A stretch of 64,000 nucleotides of DNA from Escherichia phage 121Q. The stretch is from sequence record NC_025447.1, one strand, 5' to 3'. Both the position numbers and the translations under genes were made by a program. Shown here one piece after another: positions 22,364 to 31,604 of the stretch. Within the stretch, counting starts at the first letter, position 1; each line of letters starts with the position of its first letter. Under the pieces are notes generated by a model. That model was not told the origin of the DNA, did no database searches, and was given only the letters and a program-made list of their open reading frames with translations.

Positions 22364-23059
22364 ATGGTTGAACAATTCATGTTTGGTGGTTATGCTAATG
22401 GCGAAGTACGTAACATTTCTATTCCTTACGTAGTTGAGAAAGTTAATGGTTCAGAACGTACATATGATCTAGCATCTCGTATGATGCAAGACCGTATCAT
22501 TTTCCTTGATACTGATTTCAATGATCAAATGGCACATATCATCAAACAACAATTGGTGTGGTTAGACTCACAAGGTGATTCCCCTATTACATTCTACATT
22601 AGTTCACCAGGTGGTTCAGTACACGCAGGTTTGGGTATTGCAGACGTTGCTAAGTCTTGTATTTCCCCAATCCGCACTGTAGTTATGGGTTATGCGGCAT
22701 CAATGGGTTGCTATACACAATCTGTTATTGGAACTAAAGGTTTCCGTTTAGGTGGTAAACGTTCATACTTCATGTGTCACCAAGTAAGTTCTGGTACACA
22801 AGGTCTAATTACAGACCAGAAGATTTCCCTACAACATTCTGATGCACTGAATACATTGTTGACCAAAGAAATTGCAGAAGCAGTAGGCGTATCACATGAA
22901 CAATTACTAAAAGATGCTGACCGCGATTTGTGGTTAAATGCAGAAGAAGCACTTGAATATGGTGAACATGGTTTCATTGATGGTATTATTCTTGGACCAC
23001 GTAACGAAGAAGGCAAGTACTTAGTTAAGCGTCGCGGCGGTGTGGAAGAGTGGGTGTAA
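22364..23059 (+). CDS. ClpP-family serine peptidase homologue
   Basis: SPGGSVHAGLGI...GYAASMG matches ClpP core. Confidence 0.65.
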   Translation: MVEQFMFGGYANGEVRNISIPYVVEKVNGSERTYDLASRMMQDRIIFLDTDFNDQMAHIIKQQLVWLDSQGDSPITFYISSPGGSVHAGLGIADVAKSCISPIRTVVMGYAASMGCYTQSVIGTKGFRLGGKRSYFMCHQVSSGTQGLITDQKISLQHSDALNTLLTKEIAEAVGVSHEQLLKDADRDLWLNAEEALEYGEHGFIDGIILGPRNEEGKYLVKRRGGVEEWV

Positions 23060-25702: not shown

Positions 25703-25733
25703 AAAAAAAGGAGCCACAAGGCTCCTTTTTTGT
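25702..25733. terminator. bidirectional rho-independent terminator
   Basis: A-run, GGAGCC...GGCTCC stem, T-run; sits between convergent genes. Confidence 0.7.
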
Positions 25734-26110
25734 TAACCAGGGATGTTACAATAATACAAATCCCAAGGGTGATATTTCATTTCTCCAGTACTCAATTTAA
25801 TTTTATGAAACTGGAATGATTCGGCAAATGCACTATCATCAATCTTAATACAAAAAGTATTTTTTGCTAAAGTTGGTGCAATCTCTAGTGCAGTTTTAGT
25901 TGCATCTAATCTGATTTTATCTTTATCAAAACTTGTTATAGTTACAAAACGATAAACATTAAAATCAGTGTCGATAAGATCGTAAACACAACTAGAACGT
26001 TGATTAAAGATGTTCAAGTTATATTTCAATTCACCGTTTATATTAGCGGCGGTTACACAAAAGCCGCCGATATTGAATGGTAATTTACCTTGTGCTGCTA
26101 TAGCTTTCAT
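25733..26110 (-). CDS. hypothetical protein on the minus strand (125 aa)
   Basis: ORF in track; RBS GAGGAAA upstream on minus strand. Confidence 0.5.
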   Translation of the reverse strand: MKAIAAQGKLPFNIGGFCVTAANINGELKYNLNIFNQRSSCVYDLIDTDFNVYRFVTITSFDKDKIRLDATKTALEIAPTLAKNTFCIKIDDSAFAESFQFHKIKLSTGEMKYHPWDLYYCNIPG

Positions 26111-26386: not shown

Positions 26387-26419
26387 TTATATCTTCCTAA
26401 CCAAAATTAAGGATTTGTT

Positions 26420-27028
26420 ATGAAAAGACTATGGCTTGAGGTAGTACAAGCAGTAATGCTTCTGATGTTGATAAATTTTCCAGCCAGTGCTGGTGTTGAA
26501 AGTAAAAATGTGATAAAGTACAATCCTGAAACACGTAATGTATATTTCATCTCAGATATTACGGATGGGTCACTAAAGCGTATGATGGAGTTGTATGATA
26601 AAGAACACTATGATACCATTACCATCACATCGCCAGGTGGTGATTTTGATGCTGGGATTAAAATGGCAAACTTCGTTAGAGACAATGGTATAAATTTAAT
26701 TGTTTCTAGGTATTGCAACTCAGCATGTACTGTGGTATTCTTCAGTGTAGCTTTTGAAAAGCGATACATGATAAATCGCTCAGTACTGGGACTTCATAAC
26801 ATTTCTATTAAAAGTAATGTTAAAGACGGTGATAATTCTTTTGTATCAGTTAGGCAGCTATCAACTTTTACTGAAGAAATGGCAACTAAAGTAGGTTTTC
26901 TATTTACACTATATTCTGCAAATGGAATTCCACCAGACGTTCTATATAAAGTTAGCCGTTCGCGTGGTGAAGATGTTGTAATATTAACAAAACCAGAACT
27001 GGTTTTTTACGGTTCAGTCAAACAATAA
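26420..27028 (+). CDS. secreted ClpP/SppA-fold (peptidase-like) protein
   Basis: N-terminal signal-peptide-like segment; ITITSPGGDFDAG...SRYCNSACT resembles ClpP/S49 core. Confidence 0.45.
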   Translation: MKRLWLEVVQAVMLLMLINFPASAGVESKNVIKYNPETRNVYFISDITDGSLKRMMELYDKEHYDTITITSPGGDFDAGIKMANFVRDNGINLIVSRYCNSACTVVFFSVAFEKRYMINRSVLGLHNISIKSNVKDGDNSFVSVRQLSTFTEEMATKVGFLFTLYSANGIPPDVLYKVSRSRGEDVVILTKPELVFYGSVKQ

Positions 27029-27098
27029 AAATAATTAAAATAACAGGATGATTATGATGTACTTCCTTTGTTATTAATTATATTGAGATTATATAACT

Positions 27099-27359
27099 AT
27101 GACAAACATCCAAAATTTGACATCTATTATTTTTTATGCTACAGTAGTGATGTATATTACTGTACTTTTCCTAACAGTTTTCATTTACAAAGATTACAAA
27201 AATGGCTTTATTGATAACACAACAATGAAGTTCAATTCAAAGTTTGAAGCAATAATTTATTATGTTCTGGCAACATCATATTTGGTGTGTCTAATGTTAT
27301 TAGGTACATTGATTTATATTTTATATACAACTTTATTTGCAATTGGAGCTATTTTATGA
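27099..27359 (+). CDS. small membrane protein
   Basis: two hydrophobic segments. Confidence 0.45.
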   Translation: MTNIQNLTSIIFYATVVMYITVLFLTVFIYKDYKNGFIDNTTMKFNSKFEAIIYYVLATSYLVCLMLLGTLIYILYTTLFAIGAIL

Positions 27360-27952
27360 CATGTATCATTGCACACACTGATGGTGTAACTTCTTTTATT
27401 GCAGGGGACAAACTGGGAAGTAACGGGTTCACAAAGTCCGTTCAAACTGAGCCTAAAGTATTTGAGAAAGAATTCATTAAAATCAATGATGATGCTGGTT
27501 TGACCCGTACAAAAGAAATTATGGCGATTGGTTACACCACATCATTCCGTATGGGTCAACTTCTTACTTACAGTTTGAATCTACCACAGCAAGATGCAAA
27601 TGAGACGTTTCCACAGTACTTAGTACTGAAAGTTATTCCTATTATTCGTCAAATGTTCAAAGAGGAATGGGGTTCTCGTGATCCTTCACAAGAAGTAGGT
27701 GGTGGACAGTTCATCATTCTTCACAATCATACAATTTATGAAGTTCAAGAAGATTTTTCAGTTCTTCAACCGAAAACACGAATCACCGCCGTAGGTAGCG
27801 GAACATATCATGCTATTGCAGCAATGCAAGCATATATTGAAGTTGAAAATGAATCAAAAGTGCCACTACATGAACGCATCAAATCAATTTTTAAAATTGT
27901 CAGTGATAATGTAACTAGTGTAAGTGCCGAGTTTGATGTTTTAAAGTATTAA
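27356..27952 (+). CDS. HslV/proteasome beta-subunit-like Ntn-hydrolase peptidase
   Basis: Thr directly after initiator Met; IAGD and AVGSGTYHAIAAMQA resemble HslV IAGD and GSGG...A signatures. Confidence 0.55.
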   Translation: MTCIIAHTDGVTSFIAGDKLGSNGFTKSVQTEPKVFEKEFIKINDDAGLTRTKEIMAIGYTTSFRMGQLLTYSLNLPQQDANETFPQYLVLKVIPIIRQMFKEEWGSRDPSQEVGGGQFIILHNHTIYEVQEDFSVLQPKTRITAVGSGTYHAIAAMQAYIEVENESKVPLHERIKSIFKIVSDNVTSVSAEFDVLKY

Positions 27953-27970
27953 AATTATAAGAGAGAATAG

Positions 27971-28165
27971 ATGATGGCATACACAATTTATGAATGGGTT
28001 TTGAGTTTTTTTATAGTTTTTTCTATTGTTGTAATTTATAACAATGCTAAATGCTTATACAGGGACTTGAAATCCAATGGTTATCACAAAGATAATAATT
28101 TTATGTATGCCTATCATATTGGAATAATTCTGTTATTATCAATATATTTAATTGGTTTTTCATAA
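27971..28165 (+). CDS. small membrane protein
   Basis: hydrophobic 64 aa ORF. Confidence 0.45.
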   Translation: MMAYTIYEWVLSFFIVFSIVVIYNNAKCLYRDLKSNGYHKDNNFMYAYHIGIILLLSIYLIGFS

Positions 28166-28174
28166 GGATCGAAT

Positions 28175-28927
28175 ATGATATCAGAAAAATTTATAAGTAA
28201 TGAAGGTAAAAAAAGATTACTGATTATATCTGGTGCAGGACTTTCAGTCGAAAGTGGGATGGAACCTTTTCGATTTGATGATGGTTTGTGGGATACATTT
28301 AAAATTAATGATGTATGTAACATTGCTAGTTTAACTACAAAATATCATGTTGTTCATTCTTTCTATAATACATTGCGTGTAAAATTGGGACAATGCGAAC
28401 CAAATGCAATGCATTATTTTATAAAATCGTTAGAAGAACAATATGGTGATTGCTTCCTTCATATGACTTCTAACATGGACGATCTTTATACTCGTATTGG
28501 TGGTCATGAGCTTAAACTTCATGGAAACTTGTGCGAAGTTATTGAAAATTATAGTATCAATTCTGATGATTATAATGTTATTAACTGCGGATACGAACCA
28601 TACATACCAAAACATGATGTTTTTGCTAAACCAAATGTGGTAATGATTGGAGAATATCATCGTTATGTTGATGGTATACGCTTACCAATTTACGAAGAAC
28701 GAAATAATGTGTTGAAATCTCTTAATGAAAATGATACAGTTATTGTAATTGGTAGTAGCGATACAGTACTAGTATGGTCGAGATTAGCAGCAGCATTACC
28801 ATGTTATAGTGTTAATGTTAACATTCGTAAAAATGATAATGATTTTTTGTTTAATGAAAAAGTTATCAAGCCAGCAACCAAAGCAATACCACATCTAGAG
28901 ACTATAATTAAGGAACGTATGAAATGA
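28175..28927 (+). CDS. Sir2 (sirtuin)-family NAD-binding protein
   Basis: GAGLS..SGM..FR, TSNMDDL, LHG and VIGSSDTV match Sir2 motifs. Confidence 0.6.
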   Translation: MISEKFISNEGKKRLLIISGAGLSVESGMEPFRFDDGLWDTFKINDVCNIASLTTKYHVVHSFYNTLRVKLGQCEPNAMHYFIKSLEEQYGDCFLHMTSNMDDLYTRIGGHELKLHGNLCEVIENYSINSDDYNVINCGYEPYIPKHDVFAKPNVVMIGEYHRYVDGIRLPIYEERNNVLKSLNENDTVIVIGSSDTVLVWSRLAAALPCYSVNVNIRKNDNDFLFNEKVIKPATKAIPHLETIIKERMK

Positions 28928-29475
28928 GTGTTAAAGAAGTTCCCTTTGGTGAATATGGCTCACGTGCAAATTTTGTATTTTGTTATTTCTTTGCAAGAAA
29001 ATGTAACCCTTACAAAAACTATGAGTTGAATGATATACCAGAAGTAAATTTAGTTTTACTACAATTACGATGGGATGGTCTTCTTGGTGGATGTGGTGGA
29101 ACCGTAGAAAGTACTGATATCTCACTAGAAGATGCGTTGCGTCGTGAAGTTCAAGAAGAAATGGATTACAATATTTTTGTTTCCCATCTTCGACCACTCA
29201 AAACTTTTGAAATTTACCCAGGTGCAAACAGTCATAGTTTTAGCTATGAAGTAAGCTATGACGAGTTGAAACACATTAGAGATGGATACACTAATGCTAA
29301 ACATGCGAGTGCTGAAGTTGCTGGTGTAAATTTATGTCATATTTCTCGTTATTCTAAGGGACAAAATCGAGAAGCGGGATATAATAATCTTATGACACAG
29401 AACTTCATCGGTACAGCAAAACAAGAATTGGAGTATCTGGTTCAAAAAGAAAACTTACTAATTAGTTATCTATAG
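28924..29475 (+). CDS. Nudix-like hydrolase (atypical Nudix box)
   Basis: GGCGGTVE...RREVQEEM resembles the Nudix signature but spacing is imperfect. Confidence 0.4.
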   Translation: MSVKEVPFGEYGSRANFVFCYFFARKCNPYKNYELNDIPEVNLVLLQLRWDGLLGGCGGTVESTDISLEDALRREVQEEMDYNIFVSHLRPLKTFEIYPGANSHSFSYEVSYDELKHIRDGYTNAKHASAEVAGVNLCHISRYSKGQNREAGYNNLMTQNFIGTAKQELEYLVQKENLLISYL

Positions 29476-29484
29476 GAGTTTAAC

Positions 29485-29805
29485 ATGTCTTACGCAATGT
29501 TTTTGGATGATATTCGTGATGCAAATCTATATTATCCAAACCAAGATATGGTGGTATGTCGTGACTTTAAAAGTGCATGTGAATATGTTATTGAAAATGG
29601 AATTCCAGCATTTGTATCATTCGACCATGACTTGGGTGATGTGAGCGAAGACGAAAAGACTGGATATTCTTTTGCTAAGTTTCTTATTGATTATATGTTT
29701 GATAATAATATTAAAGAACCGTTTGAGTACTTTGTTCACAGTAGTAATCCTGTTGGTAAAATTAATATTGAAACATACTTAAACAATGGATTTAACGCAT
29801 TATGA
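29485..29805 (+). CDS. hypothetical protein
   Basis: ORF in track with RBS. Confidence 0.45.
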   Translation: MSYAMFLDDIRDANLYYPNQDMVVCRDFKSACEYVIENGIPAFVSFDHDLGDVSEDEKTGYSFAKFLIDYMFDNNIKEPFEYFVHSSNPVGKINIETYLNNGFNAL

Positions 29806-30104
29806 TTCAAACACACATCAAAAGTCTTATTTGTACTGTTCTGTTAGGTGCAGGAGTTCTTTGGTTCGGACAGTATCACGAGAACACTAAGCGTACCAAC
29901 ATTCACTACAATACCGCAGAAGTTGTTAGTTTAGGACAATGTAGCGAGTCCAAATGTTCATTCATGTATAAAACCCAAAGTGGTGAAGTACGTAATGGAC
30001 TATCAAGAGAACCAGTTTCAATTGGTCAACTTGTTTACCAGGAGTGCTGGGAAGAAAAGGTTCGAGGTTCACGTTGCTATGTTGAATACGAACCAAATAT
30101 GTAA
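29802..30104 (+). CDS. membrane-anchored small protein
   Basis: N-terminal hydrophobic segment. Confidence 0.45.
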   Translation: MIQTHIKSLICTVLLGAGVLWFGQYHENTKRTNIHYNTAEVVSLGQCSESKCSFMYKTQSGEVRNGLSREPVSIGQLVYQECWEEKVRGSRCYVEYEPNM

Positions 30105-30164
30105 TAATCCGAGTCAATAACATTAGTCGAGTACAAGGATGTACTCATAACTCAAGGATGTTTT

Positions 30165-31604
30165 ATGAAAAAATATACAATTGACACAAACGTACTACTA
30201 TCTGACCCTAATGCATCTATTGCTTTTGATGGTGCTGCAATCATTCTACCATTTACAGTACTGGAAGAATTAGATTCGATTAAGAGTCGTAATGTAGATG
30301 TTTCACGCGATGCTCGTGTTGCTATTCGTAACATTGAAGCAATTATTGCAGATGCATCACATGACGAGATTAGTAGTACTGGTGTTAATATTGCTGATGT
30401 TCATACCAATATGAATCCTGATAGCAAATTGTTTGTTATTACAAACGAAGAAGCTGAGGCACTAATTCGTACTAAAGGTACAGAAGAGAAAGTTCAAACC
30501 CTTCTCAAAAGTACTGTACCTGATGATAAAATCATTCTGGTAGCTTTAGCAACAGAATCAGTACTGGTAACTCGTGATATCAACATGCGTATCAAAGCAC
30601 TAAGTTATGGTGTCGAGGTACAAGATTATCGCCATGATATTGTTATTGGTGATAGTGATTTGATTCACATTGGTCAACACCATCTGGAAATCAATTTTTG
30701 GGAAGTATACAGCAACTTAACCAATACTAATATTCAATCCGAACAAGTTGGTCGTCGTTTGTATCATTACATTTCTAAAAGCTTGATTGAACATCTGCTT
30801 CCACAAAATCTATGCATCGGTGATTATCTATATGATGATGCTGACGTATTATTTGTGTACGAAGGACAATCAGCAATTGAGGAAGATGATGGAACACTAA
30901 CACCAGAAGATATTTTGGTATTCCAAGACATTGGACAATCAGTGTCTTTACGTGCTAAAGTATGGGATATTAAAGCAAAGAATATCCAACAAGCACTCGC
31001 CATCAACAGTATTCTCGATCCTGATGTACATCTAACAGTACTGCTAGGTTCTGCTGGTACTGGTAAAACACTAATTACAATTGCTACTGCATTAGAATTA
31101 GTACTGGAAAAACGTAAATACGACCGAATCATCTTCTCTAAAACTCAAGACTCACAGTTTGAAGATATTGGTTTCTTGCCAGGTTCAGAAGCAGAAAAAG
31201 TGATTCCATTCTGTGGAGCCGCGATTGATGCGTTAGAGTTTCTTCATAAAGATGATGCCAATCCACAAGGTAGTATTGAAGAGATTATGAAACGTAATGT
31301 TATTCAATTTAAAGCACTAAACTTTGTACGTGGACGTTCATTCACCAACACTATTCTAGTAGTTGATGAATTCCAAAACATTACACCTGCACAAGCAAAA
31401 ACCATCTTGACACGAGCAGGGTTAAACTGTAAAGTAGTAATTATGGGTAACTTGAGTCAGATTGACAGTAAGTTTATTAGTCCTGTTAACAGTGGTTTGA
31501 CATATGTAACTGAGAAGTTTAAAGACTGGGCAGGTTGTCGTGTCATCGAACTAGAAGGTGTTGTTCGTTCACCACTGGCTGAATTTGCTGAAGAAAATAT
31601 GTAA
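30165..31604 (+). CDS. phoH: PhoH-like ATPase with N-terminal PIN-like domain
   Basis: Walker A LLGSAGTGKT and Walker B VVDEFQN; 479 aa. Confidence 0.8.
   Translation: MKKYTIDTNVLLSDPNASIAFDGAAIILPFTVLEELDSIKSRNVDVSRDARVAIRNIEAIIADASHDEISSTGVNIADVHTNMNPDSKLFVITNEEAEALIRTKGTEEKVQTLLKSTVPDDKIILVALATESVLVTRDINMRIKALSYGVEVQDYRHDIVIGDSDLIHIGQHHLEINFWEVYSNLTNTNIQSEQVGRRLYHYISKSLIEHLLPQNLCIGDYLYDDADVLFVYEGQSAIEEDDGTLTPEDILVFQDIGQSVSLRAKVWDIKAKNIQQALAINSILDPDVHLTVLLGSAGTGKTLITIATALELVLEKRKYDRIIFSKTQDSQFEDIGFLPGSEAEKVIPFCGAAIDALEFLHKDDANPQGSIEEIMKRNVIQFKALNFVRGRSFTNTILVVDEFQNITPAQAKTILTRAGLNCKVVIMGNLSQIDSKFISPVNSGLTYVTEKFKDWAGCRVIELEGVVRSPLAEFAEENM

Follow-up and report, generated by a model that had tools for sequence, protein, structure and literature searches.

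A proteasome-like hydrolase gene of the HslV/BPH type in the jumbo coliphage Escherichia phage 121Q and its genomic setting

The subject of this analysis is a gene of Escherichia phage 121Q, located at positions 27356..27952 (+) of a 64,000-nucleotide stretch of its genome (record NC_025447.1; the whole stretch is referred to below as the window). A preliminary description, made from the letters of the sequence, had interpreted this gene as encoding an HslV/proteasome-like peptidase without an unfoldase partner. The region 26400-28200 shows 88-90% nucleotide (nt) identity to phages SHEFM2K, UB, G17, phAPEC6 and PBECO4, and the window is part of the genome of an Asteriusvirus-like jumbo coliphage. 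The gene and the features recognized within it are listed below. Conservation counts refer to 259 aligned members of the protein family, and start-codon and length counts to 258 members.

27356..27952, + strand: peptidase gene, 198 amino acids (aa); soluble proteasome-like (HslV/BPH-type, probably 'AAH' group) N-terminal-threonine hydrolase
27345..27348, + strand: Shine-Dalgarno sequence GGAG, 7 nt before the peptidase ATG (direct reading)
27359..27361, + strand: Thr2 codon, the predicted nucleophile (Thr1 after Met removal); T in 258/259, aligns with HslV Thr1
27407..27409, + strand: Asp18 codon (Asp17 in proteasome/HslV numbering); 259/259, within an IAGD motif aligned to the IAGD of HslV
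27455..27457, + strand: Lys34 codon (catalytic Lys33); 259/259, aligned by HMMER to HslV Lys33
27467..27520, + strand: clade-specific insertion of ~14 residues (residues ~38-55), lengthening the beta-hairpin between Lys34 and Gly59
27530..27568, + strand: signature G-Y-T-T-S-F-R-M-G-Q-L-L, near-invariant, after Gly59
27794..27802, + strand: G147-S148-G149, aligned to the GSGG of HslV; counterpart of the HslV GSGG/proteasome Ser129 motif

The translation of the open reading frame (ORF) opens MTCIIAHTDGVTSFIAGDKLGSNGFTKSVQTEPKVF (direct reading), and the N-terminus of the 198-aa protein is MTCIIAHTDGVTSFIAGDK. In the sequence ATGA, its start codon (ATG, 27356) shares bases with the TGA that ends an 86-aa ORF upstream (27099..27359). 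Since 249 of the 258 family members begin directly with M-T-x, this ATG is taken as the real start of a protein with no propeptide. Nearly all of the best 150 listed matches in a library clustered at 50% identity align from their own first residue. The start assigned mechanically to the ORF, a GTG at 27287 (221 aa, with a 23-aa propeptide), was rejected as unlikely on the grounds of the family-wide M-T starts and the position of the Shine-Dalgarno sequence. Methionine aminopeptidase accepts Thr at position 2, and it is from this specificity that we infer the removal of Met1.

The relationship of the protein to HslV and to proteasome beta subunits is supported by several profile comparisons. 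The PHROG 1040 profile ('peptidase HslV family') matches residues 1-197 with E=1e-23, and the orthologues in close relatives are already annotated as 'HslV family peptidase'. A search of the Protein Data Bank (PDB) chains with a profile built from 55 homologues (profile A1) recovered (i) HslV chains over the full length (1.6e-9 to 4e-7), (ii) proteasome beta subunits (~1e-4) and (iii) BPH (2.6e-4), while hhalign matched the peptidase family to E. coli HslV with a probability of 97% and E=5.5e-11. The single sequence, used in a phmmer search of the PDB, gave only insignificant matches to HslV and recoverin (E ~0.6); a family profile was needed for a significant match there.

The structure prediction proposed in the preliminary description resulted in a confident AlphaFold2 model (predicted local distance difference test score, pLDDT, 93.3; predicted template-modelling score, pTM, 0.88), with the expected order of strands and helices, including helices H1-H4, of which H2 is predicted at residues 85-105. 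The protein has the alpha-beta-beta-alpha N-terminal nucleophile (Ntn) sandwich of the proteasome beta/HslV type (MEROPS T1 type). Helices H1-H4, which in HslV, BPH and the proteasome provide the ring contacts, are all present in the model.

The residues expected of a catalytic centre are conserved as well. After removal of Met1, the numbering of Thr1, Asp17 and Lys33 equals that of HslV without any gap. The hhalign alignment shifts the register of Lys33 by 3 residues through local gaps, but HMMER and the ungapped numbering concur on this residue. The IAGD motif occupies residues 15-18. Within the signature, conservation reaches 257/259 for G59, 252 for T61, 257 for S63, 240 for F64, 250 for R65 and 254 for Q68. 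Gly59, which sits in the model at the end of a strand and 5 residues before H1, is by this position the probable counterpart of the oxyanion-hole glycine (Gly45 in HslV and Gly47 in the proteasome); HMMER aligns it to Gly49 of HslV, unlike the position-based equivalence to Gly45. The glycine motif is VGSGTYHA (residues 146-153), in which G147 is invariant (259/259) and G149 is present in 256 of 259 members, while position 148 is mostly Ser (130 members) or Cys (115 members).

The identification of a proteasome/HslV-type peptidase made in the preliminary description is therefore borne out by the Ntn fold, the conserved Thr1/Asp17/Lys33 and the PHROG 1040, profile and hhalign matches. A fold other than that of an Ntn hydrolase and an alignment lacking the catalytic residues, the two outcomes named there as speaking against it, were both looked for, and neither was found. 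Of the two motifs it had cited, IAGD is present, whereas the second had been read as GSG-x-x-A and is in fact GSG-x-x-x-A, the pattern shared with HslV.

Cys3, encoded at nt 27362..27364 directly after the nucleophilic Thr, is found in 247 of 259 members. It was rejected as a candidate nucleophile, as Thr2 is more strictly kept (258 versus 247) and some members have Val, Leu or Ala in place of Cys3. Both the near-invariance of Cys3 and the Ser/Cys split at residue 148 (nt 27797..27799) are atypical of HslV and proteasome beta subunits.

A feature specific to this clade is found between the catalytic Lys and the glycine. The spacer from Lys34 to Gly59 comprises 9 aa in 192 members of the family and 23-24 aa in the Asteriusvirus-like clade, the model rendering the insertion as a longer beta-hairpin (strands 35-43 and 51-60). 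The predicted fold suggests that both ends of the hairpin lie at the active site, so its tip should face away from that site, toward the outer surface of a putative ring, and the hairpin could, on the model, constitute a docking arm.

The peptidase is a soluble protein: it contains no hydrophobic segment, and its peak 19-residue hydropathy is 0.86. It is situated between two small ORFs.

27099..27359, + strand: upstream 86-aa ORF; two predicted transmembrane helices; clade-specific context, not a family-wide partner
27971..28165, + strand: downstream 64-aa ORF; two predicted transmembrane helices; clade-specific; weak match to PHROG 18969 'membrane protein'

The two ORFs are 93% and 97% identical, respectively, in SHEFM2K and are present, although unannotated, in PBECO4; because they are kept in both phages, we consider them real conserved genes. 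The Met-Thr start, the ATGA overlap and a small membrane-protein ORF on each side, all of which had been pointed out in the preliminary description, are thus present at the locus. Its suggestion of a membrane-tethered protease is not supported, in view of the lack of a hydrophobic segment and the clade-specific nature of the flanks, which are absent from the Vibrio and Aeromonas phage loci examined. In T5-like phages, an upstream membrane protein was observed that is non-homologous to the Asteriusvirus flanks.

The second part of the original interpretation concerned the missing unfoldase. In the window, tblastn searches with E. coli HslU, ClpX and Lon gave no match at E<0.01 (best HslU match, E 0.78), and Walker-A motifs are found in only three places: PhoH (PIN-PhoH), an ORF resembling polynucleotide kinases and a third, weak match. 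When tblastn was applied to the phage loci and to the 5 kb around 80 bacterial family members, a weak, distant match was the only sign of an HslU-like gene. All-against-all clustering detected, as neighbour families common across seven taxonomic groups, only antisense or low-complexity artefacts; no neighbour family is shared across 84 phage loci, the commonest occurring in only 15 of them. Fuchs et al. 2021 (PMC8665760) likewise saw no co-occurring AAA+ proteins, and HslV genes without HslU were already noted in a paper on jumbo phages (PMC7823757). The family is also found where HslV is unlisted, e.g. in Actinobacteria (Actinoplanes; compared with Table 1 of PMC8665760), and because of its presence in such lineages it cannot, as a whole, depend on HslU.

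A search of the phage collection for HslU yielded 164 matches. As only 4 of these are 'Escherichia' records, most of the 22 Escherichia Asteriusvirus-type records lack this gene. HslU-like genes were observed in other jumbo phages, i.e. the Erwinia Ea35-70/Special G/Simmy50 group and Salmonella SPAsTU/SPN3US-like phages, and BFVD includes models with a proteasome fold for Special G and RisingSun, both Erwinia phages. Such genes and models in other jumbo phages suggest that some phages may encode a full HslVU-like pair.

Inspection of the window and of the PBECO4 genome (NC_027364.1) revealed components of another proteolytic system. The ORF at 22364..23059 (+), 4.3 kb upstream of the peptidase, encodes a true ClpP homologue, the counterpart of PBECO4 gp105. 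Over 191 aa, the protein of the window and its E. coli equivalent are 35.6% identical (E=2e-33), and the motifs around the catalytic residues are intact (GYAASMG for Ser, MCHQV for His and DRD for Asp). The ClpP orthologues of PBECO4 and SHEFM2K are labelled 'head maturation protease', despite the presence of a separate T4 gp21-type prohead protease. PBECO4 gp539 (locus L093, 31788..34076; 761 aa) is a ClpA-type double-AAA+ unfoldase with the domains Clp_N, AAA, AAA_lid_9, AAA_2 and ClpB_D2-small. Its 'SIGMSG' loop belongs to the IGL/IGF type, which would make ClpP the natural partner of the unfoldase. A further protein, gp457 (locus L092, 684..1229), contains a ClpS domain; its annotation as an 'ATP-dependent protease' was examined and it was rejected as a peptidase, being ClpS-like instead. 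The ClpP, ClpA-type and ClpS-domain genes together resemble a phage-borne ClpAPS set.

With HslU as the query, the ClpA-like gene was the sole match in the whole PBECO4 genome. Two proteins annotated as 'AAA family ATPase', gp484 and gp528, were discarded as unfoldase candidates, since they are DnaB-like and Rad50-like, and the 'ATPase' gp010 barely passes the Pfam AAA cutoff (21.3 versus 21.2 bits, E 4e-4). The statement that there is no unfoldase consequently holds for the window and for the family, with no HslU-type gene in the former or beside relatives, but not for the whole phage lineage, as PBECO4 encodes the ClpA-type protein elsewhere in its genome. Neither the window nor PBECO4 contains a second proteasome-like gene.

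The family to which the peptidase belongs is large. In the 50%-identity library it comprises 8,705 cluster representatives at E<=1e-3, 6,228 at <=1e-10 and 2,336 at <=1e-30. It was identified in 195 phage GenBank records (T5-like Epseptimavirus and phages of Vibrio, Aeromonas, Klebsiella, Yersinia, Xanthomonas, Geobacillus and Moorella), in at least 594 IMG/VR contigs and, by its signature, in 396 bacterial species, among them Azospirillum and other alpha-proteobacteria, Polyangiaceae, Paenibacillus, Patescibacteria, Dehalococcoidia and Actinoplanes; 37 viral structure models in BFVD share the proteasome-like fold at E<=1e-3. The expectation that such a protease would be unusual in a phage does not agree with these numbers, nor with the description of the class in PMC8665760. 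Orphan phage proteasome-like proteins are common, are annotated in the orthologues and were catalogued in 2021, i.e. the kind is already known.

Some members deviate in length or copy number. Aeromonas phage 2L372D (locus L004) carries two adjacent proteasome-like genes, a family member (4001..4552) and a divergent paralogue of 294 aa (4570..5454), which weakly matches HslV and archaeal proteasome beta models. Vibrio phage 166E36-1 (locus L005, 4001..4984) encodes a longer protein, 327 aa, in which ~145 aa are added at the C-terminus. Of 258 members, 8 reach 250 aa or more.

The genomic setting of the family genes varies. At ~20 of the 84 phage loci, the family gene lies within or adjoins a module of terminase, portal, prohead protease and capsid genes, in arrangements such as portal-family gene-...-S78 protease or TerL-family gene-protease/capsid fusion (module-associated IMG/VR loci include L095, L096, L130, L131, L135, L148, L153, L166, L167 and L171). 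At the remaining phage loci it is located amid nucleotide-metabolism or tRNA-related genes. A PhoH gene lies 2.2 kb from the peptidase gene in the window, and one is likewise close by in Aeromonas phage 2L372D and Vibrio phage 166E36-1; this arrangement is not seen in T5-like phages.

The virion proteome of phAPEC6 (PMC7247149, Table 1) includes gp341c (PhoH-like) and gp347 (14.1 kDa, 75% coverage), whose counterparts in the window are 30165..31604 (+) and 25733..26110 (-), respectively; a virion-borne PIN-PhoH protein is unexpected. Mass spectrometry detected 62 virion proteins in phAPEC6, and the peptidase orthologue, gp345c, is missing from this set.

Other genes of the neighbourhood were also inspected. 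The ORF at 26420..27028 (+), two genes upstream of the peptidase, specifies 202 aa. Its product begins with a hydrophobic segment of signal-like character and weakly resembles ClpP/NfeD (Pfam CLP_protease, E=0.007; NCBIfam ClpP, 2.8e-5; PHROG 26024 'protease'); three protease-like genes are thus found inside 6 kb. Downstream, a same-strand run (28175..31604, +) contains genes for (i) Sir2, (ii) a Nudt16-like Nudix hydrolase, (iii) cREC-REC (cyclic-phosphate-processing receiver), (iv) a 100-aa ORF (29802..30104), whose PBECO4/SHEFM2K orthologue is annotated 'membrane protein', and (v) the PIN-PhoH fusion. This run could be a module for NAD/ADP-ribose or RNA-end processing.

Judging from its sequence, the phage protein is very probably a catalytically competent proteasome-like Thr hydrolase. 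In the mechanism that we propose, Met1 would be cut off by the host methionine aminopeptidase, exposing Thr1, which together with Asp17, Lys33, the backbone of the oxyanion glycine and the GSG loop would build the same active site that HslV, BPH and the proteasome beta subunit possess. The subunits would assemble via H1-H4 into a homo-oligomer, probably ring-shaped, and would most likely act on peptides or unfolded proteins in the cytoplasm of the infected cell independently of ATP, as BPH or free HslV would. The peptidase would then be one item of the proteolysis kit of the jumbo phage, besides the ClpP of the window and the ClpA-like and ClpS-like proteins of its relatives. The ATP-independent, ring-shaped mode of action is put forward tentatively; assembly into a ring, action as a peptidase and not as a ligase, independence from ATP and the nature of the physiological substrates are all inferred. 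The best explanation overall, which we hold with moderate confidence, is a cytoplasmic, non-virion, proteasome-like Ntn hydrolase from a partner-less family that acts in the manner of BPH or free HslV.

Several observations weigh against this explanation. A Pfam scan of the peptidase, PF00227 (Proteasome) included, gave no match at E<=1; the missing PF00227 match is a detection limit and not a structural criterion, and the proteasome homologue groups of this sort were reached by Fuchs et al. 2021 (PMC8665760) only through iterative searches. No biochemical study of any family member was found in the searchable literature, nor any functional study of a phage HslV-like protein. Connectase has a proteasome-like active site that works as a specific ligase. 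By comparison with the archaeal connectase, a member of the same superfamily, the phage enzyme might be non-degradative, i.e. a sequence-specific processing enzyme, transpeptidase/ligase or amidohydrolase devoted to one substrate, which we regard as unlikely. Free HslV is only weakly active without HslU (PMC6429459), so an activator may be needed. It is conceivable that the phage HslV-like rings dock on host HslU, displace the host HslV and redirect ATP-dependent degradation: HslV is the nearest sequence relative among solved structures, the hosts of most carrier phages (E. coli, Salmonella, Vibrio, Aeromonas, Yersinia) encode HslU, and the full activity of HslV requires HslU or its C-terminal peptide, heterologous tails being able to activate foreign HslVs (PMC6429459). 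This we nevertheless judge quite unlikely, as the protein scores 19 bits against an HslV equivalog cutoff of 137-158, the family extends to lineages without listed HslV, and BPH, which is structurally equally close, acts without an unfoldase; the HslU-tail pocket residues (Phe54, Phe57, Gln114 and Lys80; PMC6429459) are ambiguous, with the HMMER and structure-based registers lying 4 residues apart.

A role in head assembly, in which the enzyme would process virion or scaffold proteins, could be suggested by the loci that place the family gene in or beside the terminase-portal-prohead protease-capsid module and by the virion proteins gp341c and gp347, orthologues of neighbours in the window. 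It appears very unlikely, since the module-linked phages already have an S78 prohead protease and PBECO4 the T4 gp21-type prohead protease gp520, gp345c was undetected in phAPEC6 virions, and the surroundings of the gene have no connection with morphogenesis at the remaining ~75% of phage loci or in bacteria. We attach still less credence to a hybrid ClpA-proteasome-like machine in which the phage ClpA-like unfoldase drives the peptidase. PBECO4 does encode gp539, with its Clp_N domain, two AAA+ modules and ClpB_D2-small, as well as the ClpS-like protein, but the 'SIGMSG' loop is of the ClpP-docking type and a true ClpP is present in the window; moreover, the genes are ~265 kb apart in PBECO4, and such an unfoldase is absent from the examined regions of T5-like and most other peptidase-bearing phages. 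The more general proposal that the peptidase ring docks on a borrowed motor, host HslU or phage ClpA-like, through either the clade-specific hairpin or HslV-like pockets is given little weight. If it were true, the resulting ATP-dependent hybrid would break down particular host proteins, for instance factors of defence or stress response, while the phage takes over the cell.

As a discovery, the peptidase itself adds little; its interest lies in the function of a large family, in the clade hairpin and in the co-occurrence with a phage Clp system. What is new here is the clade-specific 14-residue hairpin insertion, together with the finding that the lineage possesses ClpP (in the window) and ClpA- and ClpS-like genes. 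An E. coli jumbo phage with such a peptidase beside its own ClpP would be a tractable system for studying the role of partner-less proteasome relatives, and the same system could show whether phages run their own protein-degradation programme.

Among the known systems, HslV (ClpQ) offers the obvious comparison. HslV is a dodecameric double hexamer with pockets that receive the C-terminus of HslU. The H1 signature is GYTTSFRMGQLL in the phage family and GFAGGTADAF in HslV, hslU does not lie alongside the phage gene, and the identity between the two proteins is 15-19%. With 18-19 bits against the NCBIfam HslV equivalogs TIGR03692/NF003964 (cutoffs 158 and 137), the peptidase falls far below the equivalog level and, by the measure of its sequence, is a non-orthologue of HslV. 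To BPH (PDB 5OVS/5OVU) the sequence relation is weak, the profile match reaching only the E value given above; BPH is distinguished by a heptameric double ring and a long acidic pore loop.

Fuchs, Alva and Lupas 2021 (PMC8665760) described the group I proteasome homologues AAH, CPH and PPH, which radiate from BPH/HslV and are compact, propeptide-free, present in phages and without a co-occurring AAA+ partner. PPH resembles the peptidase as a phage-borne, partner-less member of group I, but assignment to it was rejected, because PPH proteins have ~140 aa and lack helix H2, whereas the phage protein has 198 aa and retains H2. With AAH it shares the compact subunit (~180 aa), helices H1-H4, the preserved triad, the absence of a propeptide, of C-terminal S12/H5 and of an AAA+ partner, and a range covering many phages, alpha-proteobacteria, Firmicutes, Actinobacteria and others. 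The ~14-residue hairpin extension of the Asteriusvirus clade, between Lys33 and the probable oxyanion Gly, is an exception to the absence of insertions that characterizes AAH. By size, secondary structure and taxonomic spread, the family most probably corresponds to the AAH group (published representative WP_035979212).

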